A stretch of DNA of 48,250 nucleotides from Candidatus Woesearchaeota archaeon (lineage in GTDB: Archaea > Nanobdellota > Nanobdellia > Woesearchaeales > UBA12501), in NCBI GenBank assembly GCA_016180035.1, contig JACPCA010000008.1, positions 1 through 48,250 of the forward strand, written 5' to 3'. Shown here piece after piece: positions 8,400 through 47,895 of the stretch. The position numbers and the translations under genes are program-made. Below the pieces are notes generated by a model. It saw only the letters and a list, made by a program, of their open reading frames with translations. It had not been told where the DNA came from and ran no database searches. Every line of letters begins with the position of its first letter. The first letter of the stretch is position 1.

Positions 8400-8450
8400 G
8401 TTCTGTGTGAAATAGCTTAGCCTACCACAAATGTTTGTTAGGCAAAAAAT

Positions 8451-8622
8451 AACAAAACAGGCCAAAGGCCTGTAACGGGTTGCGGCGCCGCCACGCATCG
8501 TTATAACAGTCGTGTCCATTTTTCTTGCTCAACACTGGTGTAGAGCAAGAAAAATGGAATTGATGAGAGGTCTGCAATTGTGGCGGCGCGTGTGTCCCGT
8601 TACCGGCTCTGCCGGTTTTGTT
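8451..8622. repeat. Family II structured palindromic element, copy 1
   Basis: Order: AACAAAAC, hairpin AGGCCaaaGGCCT, GTAACGGG, GGCGCCGCCAC, central hairpin CCATTTTTCTTGCTC/GAGCAAGAAAAATGG, GTGGCGGCGC, CCCGTTAC, hairpin CCGGCtctGCCGG, GTTTTGTT. Lies between convergent genes. Confidence 0.8.
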
Positions 8623-8720
8623 AAACGCTCTTGCCGTTAAGAAACACGAAAGAAAGGATAAGAAAATAATTGACCGAGATGACAGCGCAAAAATACCGAT
8701 CAATACCCTTTTAATATCGA

Positions 8721-16852: not shown

Positions 16853-17539
16853 TCATCCTAATGTCACCGCAGGCTTGTCCTTGCCGACGACAAAAGCATG
16901 CTTTTTTGCAGTGATGGACGGCGTGCCGCCGATGTTGATCGTGATGATATCATCTTCAATCTTATCGATGGTGCAGATTCTTCCGCGGTACTTCCCTGCA
17001 ACGAGCATGGCATGGGCACCGTCCTGGAGTGGATAATGCGCCTTCACCGCCTGGTCAGGAAGCGCTAGTTCAAGCGAATCTCCGACCTTGTAGCCATCCT
17101 TCTCGACCGTGCTGTTCCTGCCATCGGAAAAGTTCAGCTGCGTCTTTCCTTGGGGAAGCTTTGCCTTTCCGATGATCCGTGACAGTTTCCTGCCTGCCTC
17201 GCCTTTCGGCACCGAGACGACTGCAAGCATCCCTCTCTTGGTGAGCGTCATGCGATAATGCTCATCCGTATCGACAAGAGACACCACATCCATAAGCCCG
17301 ACAGGGAACTTGACATCGAGCCGGCGGCGGCCGTCAACAAGGACGGTCTTATGCTGCAGGATGTATCGGACTTCCCGAGTAGTTTTGGCGCATTTTATCA
17401 TGTCTTTCAGCACGGTTGCAAGGGAAAGGCTGTAACTCAGGCCATGGCCTGACGGGTGCGGCCTCGTGACAAACACGGATTCTTTTCGCGCAAGCTGCCA
17501 TGTTTTTGGCGTTGCGATTCGTTTCAGGTGGGCTTTCAT
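16853..17539 (-). CDS. rps4e: 30S ribosomal protein eS4
   Basis: MKAHLKRIATPKTWQLARKESVFVTRPHPSGH. Confidence 0.9.
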   Translation of the reverse strand: MKAHLKRIATPKTWQLARKESVFVTRPHPSGHGLSYSLSLATVLKDMIKCAKTTREVRYILQHKTVLVDGRRRLDVKFPVGLMDVVSLVDTDEHYRMTLTKRGMLAVVSVPKGEAGRKLSRIIGKAKLPQGKTQLNFSDGRNSTVEKDGYKVGDSLELALPDQAVKAHYPLQDGAHAMLVAGKYRGRICTIDKIEDDIITINIGGTPSITAKKHAFVVGKDKPAVTLG

Positions 17540-17931
17540 GGTTTAGGGGTGATATGATGAACAAGGCGCTTTTCGCGCTTCTTGTCTCCAAGCTTGAGCT
17601 CGGTGATGAGGAGATTGGATGCGTGAAGCGGGGGAACGACGCGCGAGCCGTCTTTCCTGATGACTTCTATCCCAGTCACATACACTTTTGAGGTGGACAG
17701 ATTTACCCTGTCAACGGTTCCTGTGTGTCCCTTGTACTGGCCGCGCACGACCTTGACCTTGTCTCCGCTGCGAAGCAGGACTGATCTCGTCTTGTATTTT
17801 GCCCGCAGCTCCTTGGACAGGTGGCAGCCGAGATGCTTGCGAAGCGTGTGAAGCGGAGCGTTGTACCTGTATTTTCTCTGCTTTCGCGGCTGCGTGCTCG
17901 CGATCCAGTGGGATGACCATTCTTTGTTCAT
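17536..17931 (-). CDS. rpl24: 50S ribosomal protein uL24
   Basis: RKQRKYRYNAPLH..GDKVKVVRGQYKGHTG (KOW). Start at the ATG 17931, preceded by GAGGA. The longer track ORF runs into the MITE. Confidence 0.9.
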   Translation of the reverse strand: MNKEWSSHWIASTQPRKQRKYRYNAPLHTLRKHLGCHLSKELRAKYKTRSVLLRSGDKVKVVRGQYKGHTGTVDRVNLSTSKVYVTGIEVIRKDGSRVVPPLHASNLLITELKLGDKKREKRLVHHITPKP

Positions 17932-17943
17932 GTGTTCCTCAGC

Positions 17944-18207
17944 GGCTCTGTCTCGAATCTCCTTATGGGCGGTGCTGTTGCCAAGCGCCGTGCCCGATGT
18001 CCTAAGCGAATGCTCGGATACTTGGGATACGAGCGATTGGCAAGCGCGAACAGAGCGCAGCAGCACCGCCCATTTCGGGAGGGGAATGGCACTGCTGCGC
18101 TCCGTTCACCTATGGAATCGGCCATGAAACCGAGTCTTTCATTCATTGACGGGCAATGGATAACTGCACTTGGCAGCAGTGCCATTCCCGACATTCGGGA
18201 CAGAGCC
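17944..18207. mobile_element. MITE-like element, family I, copy B, inserted in the rpl14-rpl24 spacer
   Basis: TIRs GGCTCTGTCTCGAAT (17944-17958) and ATTCGGGACAGAGCC (18193-18207), 14/15. Perfect 9-bp direct repeat TTCCTCAGC at 17935-17943 and 18208-18216. Confidence 0.8.
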
Positions 18208-18333
18208 TTCCTCAGCAGTGCGGTTATTGGCGCATCACATTCGATAGTGGATGATTTTTTATTGTTCATTTTTGATTGTTCAATGATGCCCTTTTTGATT
18301 GTTCGATAATGCTCTAGTTGATTACATAATCAA

Positions 18334-18735
18334 TTATACAATGATGCTGGCAAGTTTTGCTACTGCAGGCCATCGGTCACATGCTTCCTTGGCGATAGGG
18401 CCTTGGAGCTGGGTTCCCTTAGGATTTCCTTTATCATCCTTGAGGATGACGATGGAATTGTCTTCGAACTTGATCCTCATGCCATCAGGCCTGCGGTATT
18501 CCTTGCGCTGGCGGACGATGATGCCATACACCGCGGTTCCACGGACATCCGCTTTTCCTTTCTTGACCGAAACCATGACCAAGTCGCCGACGCCAGCTGC
18601 CTGGATCCTGCCGCGGACTGTCTTGTGGCCCTTGACCATGAACATGCGGACTTCCTTGGCGCCTGAATTATCACAGGGCTTCATGTAGCATCCGACTGGG
18701 ATTCCTCTGGTGACTTTTGACTTGTGCGCTTGCAT
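18334..18735 (-). CDS. rpl14: 50S ribosomal protein uL14
   Basis: 133 aa. DNSGAKEV..GDLVMVSVKKG..RPDGMRIKFEDN motifs. Confidence 0.95.
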   Translation of the reverse strand: MQAHKSKVTRGIPVGCYMKPCDNSGAKEVRMFMVKGHKTVRGRIQAAGVGDLVMVSVKKGKADVRGTAVYGIIVRQRKEYRRPDGMRIKFEDNSIVILKDDKGNPKGTQLQGPIAKEACDRWPAVAKLASIIV

Positions 18736-25976: not shown

Positions 25977-28900
25977 TTACCTCTCAACACCAACATTCAC
26001 TGAAGCGCTTCTCTGCCTGCTGGGATACTCAACGATCAGGTCGTTTCGTCTTGTCGTATCTTCCAGCCGGAAGTGCGTCCCGTACACGGTCATCGCCTCT
26101 TCATAGTCTCCTGCATCATACGTGCGCAGGCCTGGAAGGCTGACACCGATCTCCCCGTCAGTAACACTAAAGCGGATAGTAGTTGTCTCATCCGGTGAGC
26201 TTGAATTGCTCAGGTAGCGCTTCAGCGTCCGAAGCGTGATATCCGTCGGCGATCCTGCAGCCCCAAGCTCGAGAATGCCATTGCCCATGATGTTGATGGG
26301 GATGGCAGCGCCATTGAGTGTCCCGTCAGCGTTCTGGTCCACCACCAGCTTGTCGCCGGCAGGGTTGATGAAGAACTCATACGACACGCCGGACAGCACC
26401 AGGCTTCCCTGGCCAAGGCCGGCAGCGTCGATGGCTTCATACGCCGTAAAACCCTCGACAGTAAACGTGAGCTGCTTTGTCTCTTTGTTATACTCGACGA
26501 TCGTGCAGGACTCGCAGGGCTTCCCATCCTTGTAGATCACTGGATTGATCATGTCCACGTTTTCAAGGGTGACGATGGCAGGCTTGTCCAGTTCTGGCGC
26601 CTTGCTGGAATCTACCTCCACCCTGTTTTTGCTGAAGATGACGGACTCATCCAGATTCAGCCCTCTGGCATCGACAGCCTTGGCAAACTCGATCTTTCCA
26701 AGCCCGTTCCTGCCAAGCGTCAGCCGGTCAACACGCTTCAAGTCATCCAGTGTCTTCGTGGAAAAGTCCGTAGTGACCTCTTTGTCAAACGTCGCTGCTT
26801 GCGGCGGCTCGTTGATGGCGTTATCAGACTGGAAGGCGCTGAAGAGATCACTAAAAAAGTCGCTGATCTTATCGATGATGGATTTCTCTCCGCCAGCCTC
26901 TCCACCTGCCTCATTTCCGGCTGGCTGGCCAGTTTCCGGCATCCCCTGCTGGCCTTGGAGAGATTCTTCATACTCCCTGATCATTTGGTCATAGATCTTG
27001 TCCCTCGCCTGGCGGTCTTCGTCCTCTTTGAACATCTGATCATATCCCTTCTCCCGCTGCTCGCGCTCGTACCGTTCTATCATCTCATCATAGAGCTTCA
27101 TGCGCTGCTGCGTATTGTAGTCTTCAATCATTTTATCATACAGCTTCTCTCGCTTGAGGCGCTCGTCATACTCGTTCATCATCTTATTATACTGTTTCTC
27201 CCGCGCCTGCCGCGCCGCATCTGCTTCCTCCGCAACAACTTTGTCATTGACAAGGGCTTGAAGAGGGCCTCCCTCGCCGGGAACATCAGCAGAACATTTT
27301 GTTTCAGATGCGCAGTTCTCGCCGACTTTGGGATCGATCGTGACACAACTTTTTCCTCGGCACAGCGTTACGGACTTGCCGATAAGCGGCTCGTCCATAG
27401 AGAGAACAACCTTGTTCGTGCCCGGCAATTGGTAGATAACCGCAGCTGTTTTTGGCGTTTCTGGTGATGGCTGCGGCTGCCGTTCACAAGCGCCTTCCTG
27501 GCAGTTCGTGCACAATGAAAAGTCCATCTTTTCAGGCTTGTCTCCAGCACAGACCTGCTCTATCAGGTACTCCTCTTTTTGAAGCGGCTCTCCAACATAC
27601 TTCCATTCGTCATAAAAACATTCATCATAATGTTGAAACGGAGTGCCATCGTCCAATGCCCCACTAGTAAATCCGCTGGTATACGGCTCAAAGCCGCCGT
27701 CACTATCTGTGCAGCTTCCCTTGCCCTGCCTTACCCGTTCTTGCGGCTCGACGCAATGGTCTCCCTGACAGTCACAATCATAGCTTACAACACCATACAC
27801 ATCCCCTTTGCATATTGATTCGTATAGGGTGTGGGGATCATGGCACATATCTTTGTATGTTCTGCTCGACCCATCTGCTCTTGTTTCTGTTGCGCTGCCC
27901 TGTGTTTTGGGATTGTCTCCGTCGGTGTCAGTGCAGCTTCCTCCCTCGTTTTTGGGGATTGGGCCTGTCAAGGATGACTCTGGATCAGGGTTCTTTTTTA
28001 TATCAACACATTGCCCGCCCATACAGAGGCATTTTATGCTCTTGTCTCTGATCTTATTCTGATCGCAGTACACCTCAACAAGAGTTTCCGCCCTATCAGG
28101 GTACTTCATATCAAAGATGCTGTCAGCGCAGAAATCATGCTCCTCATGCACCTTTCCTGTCTCTGACACTTCTATCGCTGTACCCTTCTTATAATAATTG
28201 ATGCCACCGTCGCTATCCGTGCAGCTCGGCGTGTTTGCCGGCAGGACTGTTTGTGGGGTGAACCGATTAACCTTCTCCTTGCAGGCGCCGCCTTCACAGT
28301 CACATTCGACATTGATGAACTGCGGTTCGACACCGTTACAGATGTACTCATTCAGCATGCTTAGCCCAAGGCAGCTGTCCGTAAACTCAAAGCCGACGCC
28401 ATTGCTGTCAATGCCAGTCACCTTTCCTTGATTGTTGAAGTCTTTCCCGTCACTATCCGTACAGGAGGGCGTTGCAGGGCTGTTCGTCGTTTGTGTTGCC
28501 GAAGGCTGGCTGTCCATGCGTGCTGGCACTCCATCAAGCTTTACGGTTATCTCTCCCTCTCCAGGCACGTCCATAGAGCACTTGGATTCCGTAGCGCAGT
28601 TCTCCCCAACCTCTGGCATGAAGCTGACACAAGAATCTCCTCGGCAGATGGTGATCTGATGGTTGAGGAACGACGCGTCTGCTTCGACAACAACGTGCTG
28701 GCTTCCTGGAAGCAGATACGCTGTCTTGACAACCGGCTGAAATCTGACATTGACCGTTGACGAGCTCCCCGGCGCTAATTGAGGAGGAGAAGCTCCTGGC
28801 GGAGGAACCACCAATTTGGGAGAAGGCAGCGTTGCACCGCCAGTTGAAGGAACAGATGGAGCCTGGCGCTGTTCTGGCTGTGGTGTAGCATCAATACCAG

Positions 28901-31538
28901 CGTCACACAACTTCTGGGCAGCATCACGCGCCTTGATAAATTCGTTAAAATACAAGTCATGCGCTTCCTGGAACGCTGCGTCATACACTGCCTTTGCGCC
29001 GGCATCCGTATACTTCGACTGTTCATAGCCTTGCCATGCTGTGCGCGTCAGCTGGACTGCCCGTTCATACGCTGCCTTGACCGCTGAAAATTTGTTTTTG
29101 GCATCCTCACACTGCTGCTTTGTTTCAACATCTTTCGGGTTAGGACAATTTTTACCGTAGGTTGCCGGGCCTGTGTAGGGTTTGTCGTAGAGCGGATTGC
29201 CGCATTGCATCCTGGTCAGGTCATCCCTGCGGGCATCGCCAGGCTCACAAGTATTGCCGCTGAAAGGGACGTAGAACCTGGCATCAGGTGTTGAAGGGCA
29301 TGATTCGCAGCAGATGAATACTCCTTCATCCTGAGGGGCTTCCGGTGGATTTGAATCACTGCCGGAACTGCTGGCTGGAGCATTATCGAATGGAGAAGCT
29401 TCTGGAGGGACCATCATCCAATCGGGTGGCGTGTACTGCTGGTCATCAGCATTTCCGTTTTCTCTCTGCGCCTGTTCTCCTGGCGCTGCTTCCTGGCCAA
29501 CGGGCTGCTCTGGTGAGGGGACATACGGCTTGTTGGGATCAATGCCATGCGCCAGATTCCACGCGTCTATGTCTGCCTGCTTTTGCGGCTGGCATTTTTT
29601 TCTGGCATCAAGGATCTTGTCCATGTTGTAGTTGATCTCCCGCACCATATCTGTCATCTCGTCATTGCAGGCTTTATAGACATCATCGGACATTTCTTCA
29701 TAGTTGTAACATGTTTTTGCTTCGTCGGGGATCATGCTGTTCCCGTACATATTCATGCAGTCGTCAGTGGCTTGCTGGACTTGAGGCGGGAAGGCATTTT
29801 CATTCATCAGGTAATCCATGAACTCCGAGCACACATTGAACGGTTTAGCGCCAAGCATGCTGATAATCACTTGATCGCCGCTGATCTGCACGCCGAACGG
29901 GCTCATTTCCTCGTGCATGGTCGATTTAATCTGCCCGGAAATGCGATCGCAGGCTTTCTTGAACCCTGGATCGGCCGCGTCACTGCTGCCAGCACGGTCA
30001 TCTTGAAGATCTGCTGCCTGATAACCGGTGAGGTAGGTGATCGGCGCGCTTATCTTTTCGCCGCCAAGAACATCAAGCCCGAAGATGCTGTCAAGAAAAA
30101 AGGCGCCGGTCGGCAGAAGGCCGATGATCTTGGTATTCCCGCTCAGATCCGTGAAGACGGCATTGCCGTTCTGGACACCATCAAAATGGAGGATGTGCGT
30201 CCTGCCCTTGCCTTCTGAACCAGCTGTTGTAATGAAGCGATCATCTTGATTGATGACATAGTCCGAGGCATTTCTTCCTTCAGTAAAAATGATGTTGTAC
30301 TCTTCTGTGCCATATTTGAGCGTATTGCCCACCAGGCTGAGGAGGCGGACGTCGTACTGCTGGCCGTTATTATTGACAAATTCGAGATCGTAATTGCTGT
30401 CGCGCGCGTCAAAGGTGGCAACAGATCCGCCAGTCGCTGACGACGATGGAAGCGATGTGCCTGCAGAGCTGCTGAATGACAGGTCAAACGCAGAGGAGAG
30501 CAGCCCCATCGGCGCCCGGTGATACAGAGAAAGCCAGCTGCCAGTCGGGACGAACACGTCGCCACCAGGGCCTGCTGCTTCGAGGCGGTAGGAAAGTGCA
30601 GAGATAGAGACGACGCTATTGCTGGTTGACCCTTGTATCTTGAGTTTGGAATCGACAAGGCGGTCTCCATTGACTTGGACGCCGCCAGCGGTAAAGGAAT
30701 TGTCGGTGATGTCCGCATCTTCCATCACTATCGAACGCGGGCCTGCAAGGATCGTCACCATATCACCATGGCTTCCTGTTCCCTCCCCTGCTTCATTGGG
30801 AACAATGTCCAAGACAGTGAGGATGGCGATATCGCTGGCATAGAGAGTCTTTCCCTTCTCCATGGCAGGAGTAAGATTCCCATTGACACGGAGCACCACC
30901 GTCGGCGGCGTTGCCGTATCAGAAACAGAGAAAACCTCAATAAGGATAGTTGAGCTGCCGACAGAGATCGTCTCTTTTGACCCTTCCACCAGCGTTTTTT
31001 GAACTGGGCTTCCTGACAGGTGAAGCTCGATGGCATTGTTGCGGAGCTCTGCGCTGCTGATCGTGAAATCCTGGCCGAGGATGGAAAGGCTCTTGCCCGT
31101 CAGGTCAACCAGATCGTTGGATTGGATCTCGCTGCGGAGCGGTGCGGAAAACGACATGCGGTACTCAAAGATATCATCGCCATTCTTGCATACCAAATAG
31201 TCCCCGGGCTCTCCTTCTTCGTTCTCTGCAAAGCGGCGCGTGCAGGACTCGATCGGGTCGCCGGCAACATTGTCCTGAAACACGATGAATTGGGAGTATT
31301 CTGCCTTTCCTTCGTTGGTAAAGAGGGAGCCGTCAGCAAGGCCGTCCCAATCATGGCTCGTCAAGGAGCGGTACTCCTGGCCGATGTTTTCGTTCACGTC
31401 AAGCTTTTGCAGGACAAGGTCCCCCGTTGGAAACTCAGAAAAGGACGACAAGACTGCGATGCTGATGGCGACAAAGGCAAGAACAATGATGACTGCAGCA
31501 CGCGGATAGGGAGCATCGCCTCTTTTTTTATCCATCAT
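25977..31538 (-). CDS. Giant (1853 aa) N-terminally membrane-anchored, Cys-rich, repeat-containing cell-surface protein
   Basis: N-terminal TM (AAVIIVLAFVAISIAVLSS). Four SCTD(S/T)DG Cys-rich modules, two copies of a CRG(D/K)SC domain, five KxYDxMI repeats, Pro/Gln-rich linkers. Uninterrupted ORF. Confidence 0.8.
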   Translation of the reverse strand: MMDKKRGDAPYPRAAVIIVLAFVAISIAVLSSFSEFPTGDLVLQKLDVNENIGQEYRSLTSHDWDGLADGSLFTNEGKAEYSQFIVFQDNVAGDPIESCTRRFAENEEGEPGDYLVCKNGDDIFEYRMSFSAPLRSEIQSNDLVDLTGKSLSILGQDFTISSAELRNNAIELHLSGSPVQKTLVEGSKETISVGSSTILIEVFSVSDTATPPTVVLRVNGNLTPAMEKGKTLYASDIAILTVLDIVPNEAGEGTGSHGDMVTILAGPRSIVMEDADITDNSFTAGGVQVNGDRLVDSKLKIQGSTSNSVVSISALSYRLEAAGPGGDVFVPTGSWLSLYHRAPMGLLSSAFDLSFSSSAGTSLPSSSATGGSVATFDARDSNYDLEFVNNNGQQYDVRLLSLVGNTLKYGTEEYNIIFTEGRNASDYVINQDDRFITTAGSEGKGRTHILHFDGVQNGNAVFTDLSGNTKIIGLLPTGAFFLDSIFGLDVLGGEKISAPITYLTGYQAADLQDDRAGSSDAADPGFKKACDRISGQIKSTMHEEMSPFGVQISGDQVIISMLGAKPFNVCSEFMDYLMNENAFPPQVQQATDDCMNMYGNSMIPDEAKTCYNYEEMSDDVYKACNDEMTDMVREINYNMDKILDARKKCQPQKQADIDAWNLAHGIDPNKPYVPSPEQPVGQEAAPGEQAQRENGNADDQQYTPPDWMMVPPEASPFDNAPASSSGSDSNPPEAPQDEGVFICCESCPSTPDARFYVPFSGNTCEPGDARRDDLTRMQCGNPLYDKPYTGPATYGKNCPNPKDVETKQQCEDAKNKFSAVKAAYERAVQLTRTAWQGYEQSKYTDAGAKAVYDAAFQEAHDLYFNEFIKARDAAQKLCDAGIDATPQPEQRQAPSVPSTGGATLPSPKLVVPPPGASPPQLAPGSSSTVNVRFQPVVKTAYLLPGSQHVVVEADASFLNHQITICRGDSCVSFMPEVGENCATESKCSMDVPGEGEITVKLDGVPARMDSQPSATQTTNSPATPSCTDSDGKDFNNQGKVTGIDSNGVGFEFTDSCLGLSMLNEYICNGVEPQFINVECDCEGGACKEKVNRFTPQTVLPANTPSCTDSDGGINYYKKGTAIEVSETGKVHEEHDFCADSIFDMKYPDRAETLVEVYCDQNKIRDKSIKCLCMGGQCVDIKKNPDPESSLTGPIPKNEGGSCTDTDGDNPKTQGSATETRADGSSRTYKDMCHDPHTLYESICKGDVYGVVSYDCDCQGDHCVEPQERVRQGKGSCTDSDGGFEPYTSGFTSGALDDGTPFQHYDECFYDEWKYVGEPLQKEEYLIEQVCAGDKPEKMDFSLCTNCQEGACERQPQPSPETPKTAAVIYQLPGTNKVVLSMDEPLIGKSVTLCRGKSCVTIDPKVGENCASETKCSADVPGEGGPLQALVNDKVVAEEADAARQAREKQYNKMMNEYDERLKREKLYDKMIEDYNTQQRMKLYDEMIERYEREQREKGYDQMFKEDEDRQARDKIYDQMIREYEESLQGQQGMPETGQPAGNEAGGEAGGEKSIIDKISDFFSDLFSAFQSDNAINEPPQAATFDKEVTTDFSTKTLDDLKRVDRLTLGRNGLGKIEFAKAVDARGLNLDESVIFSKNRVEVDSSKAPELDKPAIVTLENVDMINPVIYKDGKPCESCTIVEYNKETKQLTFTVEGFTAYEAIDAAGLGQGSLVLSGVSYEFFINPAGDKLVVDQNADGTLNGAAIPINIMGNGILELGAAGSPTDITLRTLKRYLSNSSSPDETTTIRFSVTDGEIGVSLPGLRTYDAGDYEEAMTVYGTHFRLEDTTRRNDLIVEYPSRQRSASVNVGVER

Positions 31539-32932: not shown

Positions 32933-33086
32933 GGGGGCGTAGTATAACCTGGCTAGAATGGCTGGCTCCAGCAATGGAGCGATGAGCTGCAGAATATCTG
33001 CAGCGATGATGAAACGCTGTGGTCTGTTGAAGCTTTCGCTTCAATGAAGAGACCAGCAGGTCTGGGTTCGAATCCCAGCGCCCCCA
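32933..33086 (+). tRNA. tRNA-Trp (CCA) with 80-nt intron at canonical 37/38
   Basis: Acceptor GGGGGCG/CGCCCCC, anticodon stem GCTGG/CCAGC, loop CTCCAG|A with CCA at 32968-32970, T-arm CTGGG-TTCGAAT-CCCAG, discriminator A. One A-A mismatch in the D stem. No encoded CCA. Confidence 0.75.
32972..33051 (+). ncRNA. tRNA-Trp intron carrying box C/D-like guide RNA elements
   Basis: AUGAUGA at 33006-33012, GCGAUGA at 32979-32985, AUGAAGA at 33044-33050. Short antisense elements to anticodon-loop positions 32-36 and 38-41. Confidence 0.5.
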
Positions 33087-33094: not shown

Positions 33095-33144
33095 AGTTGA
33101 AAAGATTATTGTTCTACTGATTGGGGGAATTAAGAGAAGTAAAT

Positions 33145-33326
33145 AACAAAACCGGCAGAGCCGGTAACGGGTTACGGCGCCGCCACGCATAGGCCTATAG
33201 ATTATGTCCGTTTTTCTTGCCCCTCACTGGTGTAGGGCAAGAAAAACGGAATTGATAAAGTACTGCGATCGTGGCGACGCAGATGTCCCGTGACCCGCTG
33301 AGCGTAGCGAAGCCGGGTATTTTGTT
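33145..33326. repeat. Family II structured palindromic element, copy 2
   Basis: Same architecture as 8451-8622, with compensatory changes: central hairpin CCGTTTTTCTTGCCC/GGGCAAGAAAAACGG, side hairpins CCGGCagaGCCGG and ACCCG..CGGGT. Lies between convergent tRNA-Trp and dnaG. Confidence 0.8.
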
Positions 33327-38389: not shown

Positions 38390-38424
38390 TTTCTTTGTAG
38401 GCAGAGAACGGATTGATAGAAAAT

Positions 38425-38680
38425 AATAAAACCGGCAGAGCCGGTAACGGGTTATGGCGCCGTCGCCTATCACATTGTTCTTCCAATCCATTTTTCTTGC
38501 AATTTGTAACAAAAAATAATAAATGTGCCAGGGGCACAACGGGTTACGGCGCCGCCACGCATGAATCTGTTGTTCATGTCCATTTTTTTGCTCCTCAACA
38601 GTGTGGAGCAAAAAAATGGAATTTATGAAATTAAACGCGACGGCGCGGATGTCCGTTAATGCCCATTTGGCATTTTTGTT
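38425..38680. repeat. Family II element, copy 3: truncated left half (38425-~38500) followed by a complete copy (~38508-38680)
   Basis: The left half is near-identical to the copy 2 left arm. The complete copy has side hairpins GTGCCaggGGCAC and ATGCC..GGCAT, and central hairpin CCATTTTTTTGCTCC/GGAGCAAAAAAATGG. Confidence 0.75.
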
Positions 38681-38833
38681 ATTTTTTGTCCAAACGTGCG
38701 ACACTGAGAAATTTATTACTTTTCACAAAACGAATAATCGCAACATTAATAAAACAGTTGCCTTGAAAAGCGGAGAAGCGCAGCGATCACTGCATCGCGG
38801 CACCGTATAGCTGCTTTACCCCACCAGTTATAG

Positions 38834-40779: not shown

Positions 40780-41877
40780 ATGGTACAGATGCACAGCCCT
40801 CAGGAGATCGTACAAGACATCAAGGCTATTGCCAATGAAGTCTATCAGAAGATCATCAAGATAAAAGCGCCAACGCTGAGCATGCCATTGCGCTCGCTCC
40901 AGAACGTCAAATACGACGAGAAAGAAGGATACTTTGAAGTGCTCGGCAAAAAGAAGGCAAGGACGCTCACGGCCTCCACGGTCAAGACGTTCGCACAGAC
41001 GCTCCTGATGATGAACGAGTCCAAAAAGCTCGTGGAGACCGACGACATCGCCACCAAGAGAGAGATGTATTACATCTCCAAGAACTGGGGTGAAGCACGG
41101 TTCAAGGAGCAGCCGGAATCAGATACTGTCATGGACGATTATGAGGCAATGCTCAGCGTGAACCGCGAGCAGATCGGCTTCGTCCCGGAAGAGAAAGGCG
41201 GCGCGGTCGCCGGAAAGCTCGTTGTCATCGACAAGGATGATACTGGAAAAGAGCTGCGCATCGACTGCACCAAGTTCGGCTCTGGCGCGTATTCCGTGCC
41301 GACCAGCGTGGAGCACCTCAAGTTCGAGACAAAAGCGGACTTTGTCTTGGCGATCGAGACCGCAGGTATGTTCCAGCGGCTGGTGAAGCATAACTACTGG
41401 AAGACTGCCAACTGCGTCCTGGTCTCTATGGGCGGCGTGCCGACACGCGCCTGCAGAAGGTTTATCAGAAGGCTGTCGGATGACATGAAAATTCCCGTAT
41501 ATGTCTTCACCGACGGCGATCCCTACGGATACCTCAATATTTATCGCACGCTGAAAGTCGGCTCCGGCAATGCCGCGCACATCAACAAGTACTTCTGCGT
41601 GCCGAACGCAAAATTCATCGGCGTTACGCCGCAGGACATCATCGACTACAAGCTGCCGACGCATCCGCTGAAAGACATTGACGTGAAGCGCGTCCGGGAC
41701 GGCATGAAGAACGACCCCTTCGTCCAGCACTACAAGGCCTGGCAGAAAGCTCTCGACCATATGGTCTTGATGAAGAAGAGAGTGGAACAGCAGGCCTTCG
41801 CCGCACATTCGCTGAATTTCGTCATTGACACCTATCTGCCGGAAAAGATCAAGAACCAGAAGACCTGGCTGCCGTGA
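40780..41877 (+). CDS. top6A: DNA topoisomerase VI subunit A (Spo11 family)
   Basis: REMYYISKNW (catalytic Tyr region), Toprim VLAIETAGMF..VFTDGDPYG. Confidence 0.95.
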   Translation: MVQMHSPQEIVQDIKAIANEVYQKIIKIKAPTLSMPLRSLQNVKYDEKEGYFEVLGKKKARTLTASTVKTFAQTLLMMNESKKLVETDDIATKREMYYISKNWGEARFKEQPESDTVMDDYEAMLSVNREQIGFVPEEKGGAVAGKLVVIDKDDTGKELRIDCTKFGSGAYSVPTSVEHLKFETKADFVLAIETAGMFQRLVKHNYWKTANCVLVSMGGVPTRACRRFIRRLSDDMKIPVYVFTDGDPYGYLNIYRTLKVGSGNAAHINKYFCVPNAKFIGVTPQDIIDYKLPTHPLKDIDVKRVRDGMKNDPFVQHYKAWQKALDHMVLMKKRVEQQAFAAHSLNFVIDTYLPEKIKNQKTWLP

Positions 41878-41902
41878 GGGGTTTCTTTTTTGTTCATTTT
41901 TT

Positions 41903-42067
41903 GGCGCTGTAAAAAATGTCATCCAGATTTTGGTGCGCCGCCGTGACTTTCACTGAAGACTCTTTTTTCTTTCCCACCCTGCAAGGTGAGGTGGGAAAGA
42001 AAAAAGACCTAAACCAAGTTTAGATACGGCGGCGCTATGTATAAGCCATGATATTTTCTACAGAGCC
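41903..42067. repeat. Hybrid structured element, copy 4: family I-like termini with a family II-like core
   Basis: Termini GGCGCTGTAAAAAATGTC and GATATTTTCTACAGAGCC (reverse complement GGCTCTGTAGAAAATATC). Core GCGCCGCCG .. TCTTTTTTCTTTCCCACC/GGTGGGAAAGAAAAAAGA .. CGGCGGCGC. No clear target duplication. Confidence 0.6.
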
Positions 42068-42121
42068 GATAGCACCATAAACTAGTTATACCAGTTATAA
42101 CTTTGATTATACCAAGAGAGT

Positions 42122-42439
42122 ATGGCTCAACAAAGGAAGATAACGTGCGACTGTGGGGGGCATCTCCAAGAACAAGACATGGAGCTAGATCATATCCTCA
42201 CCAAGGCAATGGTGTGTGATGCCTGCCAGTTCACGACCTTGACCAAAGAGCAAGCTAAGGAGTTTCGGAAGCGGGTAGAATTCCACCAGGCGATAGACCA
42301 GGAAAAGCAGGTTATTCAGATAGGGAACAGCATGGGAATAACGCTCCCTGAAAAGTTGCGGGACTATGGCGTCAGCATTGGAAAGAAATTACGGATTGAG
42401 GCCATTGATGACAAGTCATTTAAGGTGGAGATTGTTTAG
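42122..42439 (+). CDS. Zinc-ribbon plus AbrB/SpoVT (MazE-like) domain protein
   Basis: CDCGG..CDAC ribbon. C-terminal IQIGNSMGITLPEKLRDYGVSIGKKLRIEAIDDKSFKVE matches the swapped-hairpin beta-barrel pattern of antitoxin/transition-state regulators. Confidence 0.6.
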   Translation: MAQQRKITCDCGGHLQEQDMELDHILTKAMVCDACQFTTLTKEQAKEFRKRVEFHQAIDQEKQVIQIGNSMGITLPEKLRDYGVSIGKKLRIEAIDDKSFKVEIV

Positions 42440-42477
42440 AGAAATACTGCCACAAGAAGACCTGGCTGCCGTGAGCA

Positions 42478-47347: not shown

Positions 47348-47370
47348 GGCTCTTGTTTTCTTTAAATATT

Positions 47371-47895
47371 ATGATACCGCTTGAAGATAGAATTAAATGG
47401 GCTGAAAGAGCAGATAAAAATCAAAACCCCGCCAATTTCTTTAGACAGCACTATGATCCTGATACTACAAGAAGCCAATTAGCCAAAAAAGATTGCGCAT
47501 TGTACAGGATATTAAGCAGGAAAAGATTGCTTGATGAGGCCATACCTGATTTTGACCATGAAACATCTGAAAGAGTAAGAAGGGCACGCACAGAAGTAAG
47601 TAGGTTTGGAAATGACCCATTTGCATATTACCAAGAGCATCATGCTGGATTGACAAGAGGACAATTGTGGAAGCAAGACCAAAGCTTGTATCAGAGATTA
47701 AGAAGTGATGGGTTGTTGGACCAGGTTCCTGTTACAAGAACAGATTTTGGAAATGATCCTGTTGCATATTACCAAGAGCATTATGCTGGATTGACAAGAG
47801 GACAATTAAAAAAGCAAGACCCAAGCTTGTATCAGAGATTAAGAAGAAATGGCTTATTGGACAATGTTCCTGCTAAACCTATTAAGATTAGATAG
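47371..47895 (+). CDS. Hypothetical protein made of three ~47-aa repeats
   Basis: Repeats 2 and 3 (47605-47745 and 47746-~47880) are near-identical at nucleotide level: FGNDP(F/V)AYYQEH(H/Y)AGLTRGQL.KQD.SLYQRLR..GLLD.VP. Repeat 1 has diverged. The track start TTG (47353) was replaced by the ATG at 47371. Confidence 0.5.
   Translation: MIPLEDRIKWAERADKNQNPANFFRQHYDPDTTRSQLAKKDCALYRILSRKRLLDEAIPDFDHETSERVRRARTEVSRFGNDPFAYYQEHHAGLTRGQLWKQDQSLYQRLRSDGLLDQVPVTRTDFGNDPVAYYQEHYAGLTRGQLKKQDPSLYQRLRRNGLLDNVPAKPIKIR

Follow-up and report, generated by a model that had tools for sequence, protein, structure and literature searches.

The segment at positions 17944–18207 of the window, by which we mean the whole 48,250-nucleotide stretch of DNA analysed here, is very probably a MITE, a non-autonomous cut-and-paste DNA transposon, inserted on the leader of the ribosomal-protein gene uL24; we infer that an IS903-type transposase moved it in trans and that it is carried passively. 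The minus strand of the window is an archaeal ribosomal-protein operon of a Woesearchaeota (DPANN) archaeon from groundwater, and the element, which we term copy B, lies between uL14 and uL24. It is complete, measures 264 bp at 58% G+C and contains neither a transposase nor a conserved ORF. A first-pass annotation of the sequence had proposed a MITE insertion at this point, and the proposal is supported by the inverted termini, a 9-bp target duplication, the lack of a conserved ORF, a second copy in the window, absence of the element from relatives and recovery of its junctions in independent assemblies.

The boundaries of copy B are set by its inverted termini together with the exact end of its homology with the second copy, copy A. 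The left terminal inverted repeat, GGCTCTGTCTCGAAT (17944–17958, plus strand), agrees with the reverse complement of the right terminus, GGCTCTGTCCCGAAT (18193–18207, minus strand), at 14 of 15 positions, exactly at the coordinates first proposed for a 264-bp element with 15-bp termini; over 20 nt (17944–17963 against 18188–18207) the agreement is 16/20. The first 9 nt of the left repeat are perfectly complementary to the opposite end, and the right repeat is identical to the copy A terminus at 204–218. Directly outside these ends stands a perfect 9-bp direct repeat, TTCCTCAGC, at 17935–17943 on the uL24 side and at 18208–18216 on the uL14 side. This 9-mer occurs nowhere else in the window and abuts both element ends with nine of nine positions matching, confirming the target-site duplication that had been described. 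We calculate that a 9/9 repeat would flank both termini by chance with a probability of about 4e-6 per site; such a case occurs twice in the window.

The operon runs on the minus strand in the order uL3, uL4, uL2, uS19, uL22, uS3, uL29, SUI1, Rpp29, uS17, uL14, uL24, eS4, uL5, uS14, uS8 and uL6, and on to SecY. The uL24 gene (17536–17931, minus strand, 131 aa) matches Pfam PF16906 (Ribosomal_L26/L24P, 1.2e-23) and carries a KOW motif; its ATG occupies 17931–17929 on the minus strand, and its N-terminus agrees with those of two relatives (L033 and L034). The uL14 gene (18334–18735, minus strand, 133 aa) matches PF00238 at 5e-34, and its closest match, at 90% identity, is from a Woesearchaeota groundwater MAG. 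These Pfam identifications confirm the position of the element between uL14 and uL24, where the two genes are separated by 402 nt. Across 78 Woesearchaeota/Nanoarchaeota relatives, the same spacer ranges from an overlap to 132 nt and is mostly shorter than 30 nt. The earlier description of uL14 and uL24 as normally almost contiguous therefore holds for most relatives but not for this genome, in which the spacer measures 129 nt even with the element subtracted. Because the element-free spacer is of this length, the two genes were already non-contiguous here, and uL24 therefore already relied on its own leader. The residual spacer outside the element (18217–18333, minus strand) is A+T-rich, at 28–39% G+C, and, read on the coding strand, contains the GAACAATMAAAAA repeat three times. 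Its sequence recurs nowhere else in the window, is lacking in relatives and is the same in four independent Logan contigs; it could be an internal promoter, a binding-site array or the remnant of an older insertion.

Comparison with related genomes, which the first-pass annotation had named as a check on the insertion, finds the element absent from the uL14–uL24 spacer of 78 of 78 relatives; the closest empty site comes from a relative that is 90% identical in uL14, hence not from the same species. Neither a BLAST search for similarity to the element nor a regular-expression search for GGCTCTGT-type ends with matching duplications returned a hit in 80 related loci.

The relatives also illuminate what lay at the insertion point. 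On the coding strand, the uL24-side copy of the duplication reads GCTGAGGAA, ends 3 nt ahead of the uL24 ATG, as had been noted, and carries a Shine–Dalgarno (SD)-like GAGGAA; the pre-insertion site on that strand is ...CCGCACT GCTGAGGAA CAC ATG. Relatives that possess a spacer often carry this motif ahead of uL24; in several of them GAGGAA stands 4–7 nt from the ATG, as in L034, with GAGGAACACCATG in the leader TGAGGAACACC-ATG; the corresponding leaders are CGAGGAACCC-ATG in L056 and TGAGGAAAAA(A)-ATG in L054 and L096. Within the present operon, SecY, uS8, SUI1, uL22 and uL2 are likewise preceded by GGAGG- or GAGG-like leaders. Because relatives and other operon genes carry such motifs, the GAGGAA before the uL24 ATG is native, and the spacing in relatives fits the earlier reading that the insertion fell on this motif and that the duplication left one intact copy in place.

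These observations show a simple course of events. The element encodes nothing and bears only terminal inverted repeats recognised by a DDE transposase. It inserted into the uL14–uL24 spacer through a 9-bp staggered cut on GCTGAGGAA, the SD-like uL24 leader, and filling-in of the stagger doubled these 9 bp, keeping an intact GAGGAA 3 nt before the ATG. The enzyme was probably an IS5-family transposase of the IS903 type, presumably supplied in trans from elsewhere in the genome. The element would since have been carried passively in the operon transcript. Such co-transcription is suggested because the coding strand offers no T-run terminator: the minus strand from the uL14 stop to the uL24 ATG holds zero runs of four or more T, which bears out the earlier statement that runs of five or more are lacking.

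Copy B is not the only member of its family in the window. Copy A occupies 1–218, its left part lying beyond the window start, and is 84% identical to copy B (18005–18207) over 203 nt, with the homology halting at exactly the same terminal base, ...ACAGAGCC. The window thus holds two family copies, one of them (copy A) truncated. Copy A is neighboured by metabolic genes unrelated to the setting of copy B and, relative to the downstream gene, has the opposite orientation. A second MITE-like element, el2 (228–443, 216 bp), shares the GGCTCTGT terminus, starts with GGCTCTGTAGAAAGTC and finishes with the inverted form of GGCTCTGTAGAAAGTC; its interior is unrelated, its predicted fold has a closing terminal stem (z-score −8.0), and it is flanked by a perfect 9-bp duplication, AAAAGAAGC, at 219–227 and 444–452. 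It abuts copy A, in the order copy A, AAAAGAAGC, el2, AAAAGAAGC, so that its insertion point coincides with the final base of copy A; this suggests that one 9-bp target was used again, as a hot spot. A third element with related termini, el3 (41903–42067, 165 bp), has the ends GGCGCTGTAAAAAATGTCAT and GGCTCTGTAGAAAATATCAT, which match at 17 of 20 positions, and no flanking target duplication was found. Altogether, at least seven or eight small palindromic elements are present in the 48-kb window.

Some of the repeats in the window belong to other groups. A separate, fully palindromic intergenic family of about 185 nt is represented by four copies (8438–8630, 33138–33325, 38418–38500 and 38510–38693) that are 72–96% identical and have no Rfam match at the gathering score; its layout is TAACAAAAC-hairpin-GTAACGGGTTRCGGCGCCGCCACG ... 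GTCCATTTTTCTTGC/GCAAGAAAAATGGA ..., followed by the mirror image. Around el3, a 19-bp direct repeat, AAGACCTGGCTGCCGTGAG, at 41860–41878 and 42458–42476 is a duplication of the 3′ terminus of the topoisomerase VI A gene, stop codon included, and encloses el3 and a 105-aa ORF (42122–42439) with no Pfam match. The region 41860–42476 looks like an insertion of roughly 600 bp. Elsewhere in the window, a minus-strand 1853-aa ORF (25977–31538) contains, at residues 1594–1701, a Nup98-96 S59 autopeptidase domain (PF04096; E 1e-9, 39 bits, with the gathering score at 28.4), which is unusual in archaeal proteins. At 32933–33086, an Rfam tRNA match spans 154 nt, implying a long intron, and was missed by ARAGORN. 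Finally, 47605–47875 holds a 130-nt direct repeat in two tandem copies 141 nt apart and 88% identical, within or beside a 180-aa ORF (47353–47895).

Inverted termini combined with a duplication of fixed length indicate mobilisation in trans by a DDE cut-and-paste transposase. A Pfam search of 25 ORFs of the window recovered housekeeping genes only and no transposase. As a reference we analysed an E. coli IS5-family copy of IS903 type with DDE_Tnp_1 and DDE_Tnp_1_5 domains, which has GGCTTTGTTGAATAAATC ends and is flanked on both sides by the 9-bp sequence GGTTAACTA. The window elements match the IS903 end in register at seven of the first eight nucleotides, with the terminus GGCTYTGT; over 18 nt, copy B matches at 10, el2 at 11 and the right end of el3 at 14 positions, these being short stretches counted without a statistical model. 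The two perfect duplications in the window, those of copy B and el2, are both 9 bp, the same length as in the IS903 reference copy. On the basis of the terminus GGCTYTGT and the 9-bp duplication, the mobiliser is likely an IS903-like (IS5 family) DDE transposase acting in trans. The window elements further resemble IS903 in the 14/18 match of el3 to GGCTTTGTTGAATAAATC, and differ from it in lacking a transposase gene, in size (264 bp against 1057 bp), in their unrelated interior and in host, a DPANN archaeon here and an enterobacterium in the case of IS903. Elements of the IS200/IS605 type have no terminal inverted repeats and no target duplication, and carry subterminal hairpins; a palindrome-associated element of that type was rejected, as inverted repeats and duplications are both present here.

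Public assemblies reproduce both junctions of copy B. In Logan contigs from three runs (L001, L002 and L003), the uL14-side junction reads ...GCTGAGGAA|GGCTCTGTCCCGAATGTCGGGAATGG, and each contig stops 26–29 nt inside the element. A fourth contig, L005, starts 52 nt inside the other element end, which is correctly oriented, and runs into uL24. The right junction of el2 likewise appears in contigs L113 and L114, both beginning 40 nt within that element. De Bruijn contigs typically break at repeats, just inside the element. As the short-read contigs of copy B stop just inside it, the element is likely multi-copy in that community, and it accounts for short-read contigs of this population breaking at this point of the operon. 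Among public contigs, none covers the element from end to end or shows an unoccupied site in the same species, and neither the exact 131-aa uL24 nor a 176-aa extended ORF described below is present in public records; the junctions are reproduced in public contigs, and the element interior is that of the window assembly. The series to which the Logan runs belong is Modesto, California groundwater, from which run SRR12113421 is named in PMC11549363.

We examined the predicted structure of the element in both senses. The minimum-free-energy fold of copy B comprises a closing terminal stem and two long arms, forming a three-way junction as the first-pass annotation had drawn it. The prediction is a strong one: the operon sense has a z-score of −9.15 and the plus strand one of −12.0, and none of 200 shuffled sequences folds as well. 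Arm P2 (17965–18073) has a basal helix of 17965–17977 with 18061–18073 in which 13 of 13 positions are complementary, and arm P3 (18082–18189) has a basal helix of 18082–18098 with 18173–18189 in which all 17 are, so both helices are as perfect as had been claimed. When folded in context, the element closes as its own domain and the flanking leader is weakly paired; since this self-contained junction leaves the leader largely unpaired, the insertion may have been tolerated. Segments containing GCAGCAG can adopt two mutually exclusive pairings: 18088–18107 can pair instead with an upstream GAACAGAGCGCAGCAGCACC segment at about 18048–18067, and in the truncated copy A this alternative central helix is the predicted one.

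Comparison of the two copies gives no argument for selection on this structure. The long helices (termini, P2 and P3) are identical in copies A and B and, being invariant, are uninformative on selection. Placed on the structure of copy B, the sequence of copy A shows one compensatory pair and four to six one-sided changes that keep pairing, against 11–15 broken pairs. A small hairpin within P3 had been thought to keep its pairing while changing in sequence; each copy forms it in a shifted register, at z-scores of −0.5 to −2.0 that are no better than shuffled, and with so many broken pairs we rejected covariation support for it. Nor did Rfam 15 return a match at the gathering score, or at E ≤ 1 over 17850–18400, and copy A gave chance microRNA matches only; a described functional RNA family was rejected on these results. 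We take the strong predicted fold to be most likely a by-product of the palindromic build of the element, not a selected RNA.

The element also creates reading frames that call for care. Two of the six frames of copy B (+0 and −1) are open throughout, giving spurious ORFs of 125 aa and 113 aa. In a third frame, a GTG at 18066 opens a 45-codon extension of uL24, yielding the 176-aa extended ORF, and in Logan contig L005 uL24 is called with a 21-aa extension into the element. We rejected a genuine N-terminal extension of this kind, since in relatives the protein begins at the MNK/MKxxW methionine. In copy A each of the six frames is interrupted by stops, so no reading frame is conserved in the family. 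Open frames across the element can thus lead gene callers to yield spurious proteins, a point to be borne in mind in annotation.

Several other explanations of the locus were weighed. An assembly artefact, in which a repeat was misplaced or collapsed between uL14 and uL24, might be suspected from the repeat nature of the element, the breaks of short-read contigs within it and the lack of a public contig across it. We regard this as very improbable: three independent runs agree exactly on the uL14-side junction, a fourth contig carries the uL24-side junction with the element end rightly oriented, no empty-site contig is on record and the exact 131-aa uL24 expected from an uninterrupted locus was not found. 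Still harder to credit is an ancestral structured spacer or ribosomal-protein autoregulatory leader in place of an insertion. A strong structure directly upstream of a ribosomal-protein start codon would suit such a leader, but the element is found in none of 78 relatives, in which the spacer reaches 132 nt at most, has a second copy beside unrelated metabolic genes and ends in inverted termini flanked by a perfect 9-bp duplication. A more serious contender, possible although clearly the less probable choice, is that the MITE was moved by another transposase family, such as ISL3, IS4, IS1, IS256 or an undescribed archaeal family. The window yielded no cognate transposase, and the similarity to IS903 ends is short (7/8 nt in copy B, and 10–14 of 18 over the longer stretch). 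The ends of ISL3 elements start with GGCTCTT and resemble the window elements about as closely in the first 8 nt; IS1, IS4 and IS256 can also give 9-bp duplications. The two independent, perfect 9-bp duplications, however, misfit the 8-bp target duplication of ISL3, and an 8-bp reading gives non-matching flanks, so that an ISL3 origin was rejected; the length of the duplication is the sole feature that discriminates between the two and favours IS903. IS4-type ends, which start CT, and IS1 ends, which start GGTGATG, do not match the window termini, and the IS903 copy checked here combines GGCTTTGT ends with a 9-bp duplication.

A different kind of alternative accepts the insertion and gives the element a role. 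In the manner of Correia and REP elements in bacteria, the MITE might have been co-opted, its three-way junction acting as an RNA processing site, stabiliser or insulator that uncouples uL24 and the downstream genes from those upstream. The fold is very stable and self-contained in the operon sense (z −9.15), the perfect 13- and 17-bp helices are conserved between copies, the element would have to be transcribed given that the coding strand lacks a terminator, and the GCAGCAG segments have mutually exclusive pairings. We nevertheless consider co-option improbable. The conserved helices are invariant and hence silent on selection, and the variable hairpins are mostly broken between copies (1 compensatory against 11–15 broken pairs). 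The fold is more stable antisense to the operon than in its sense (−150.8 against −137.4 kcal/mol), copy A is oppositely oriented relative to its downstream gene, and all 78 relatives lack the element. We similarly give little credence to a more specific version, in which the junction with its alternative GCAGCAG pairings would be a functional RNA module in an essential operon, a processing or stability site setting the ratio of upstream to downstream ribosomal proteins; were it true, insertion would be favoured at purine-rich ribosome-binding leaders. The preferred reading thus remains a passively carried MITE on the uL24 leader.

Searches of wider collections returned neither another copy of the element nor its autonomous partner. 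An exact 22-mer from the conserved core had 0 matches in genome contigs, and an 18-mer hit 25 loci in metagenome contigs, all of them chance matches of 19–31 nt by BLAST. Two patterns had 0 matches in viral contigs, and the plasmid and phage collections yielded nothing to blastn in distant mode. At the protein level, a query made by joining the open segments of the six translated frames, a design that may lower sensitivity, also found nothing. The family therefore appears, by sequence, to be matchless in all collections searched, and its kind, the prokaryotic MITE, is already known. In build it resembles the Correia elements of Neisseria, ERIC, RUP and the SM elements of Sulfolobus, which are likewise small, have inverted termini and a target duplication, lie intergenically within transcription units and fold strongly. 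The likeness is one of element build: neither sequence similarity nor an Rfam match links it to any of these. A published MITE census places a Woesearchaea genome among the highest-density archaea, at 105 per Mb (PMC11602168), and the present window, in which 48 kb hold seven or eight small palindromic elements or more, is in keeping with this. The census does not describe a position in the uL14–uL24 spacer, and the word 'ribosomal' is absent from the paper.

Collectively, these results describe a well-documented and ordinary kind of event, notable mainly for its landing site, and raise no new biological question. The location in the uL14–uL24 junction, on the leader of uL24, is unusual, being shared by 0 of 78 relatives, and no new mechanism is needed to explain it. 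One of the most conserved gene junctions of archaea can absorb a structured 264-bp mobile element with the downstream ribosome-binding site kept, and a family of non-autonomous transposons, probably IS903-like, is active or was so until recently in a reduced DPANN genome.
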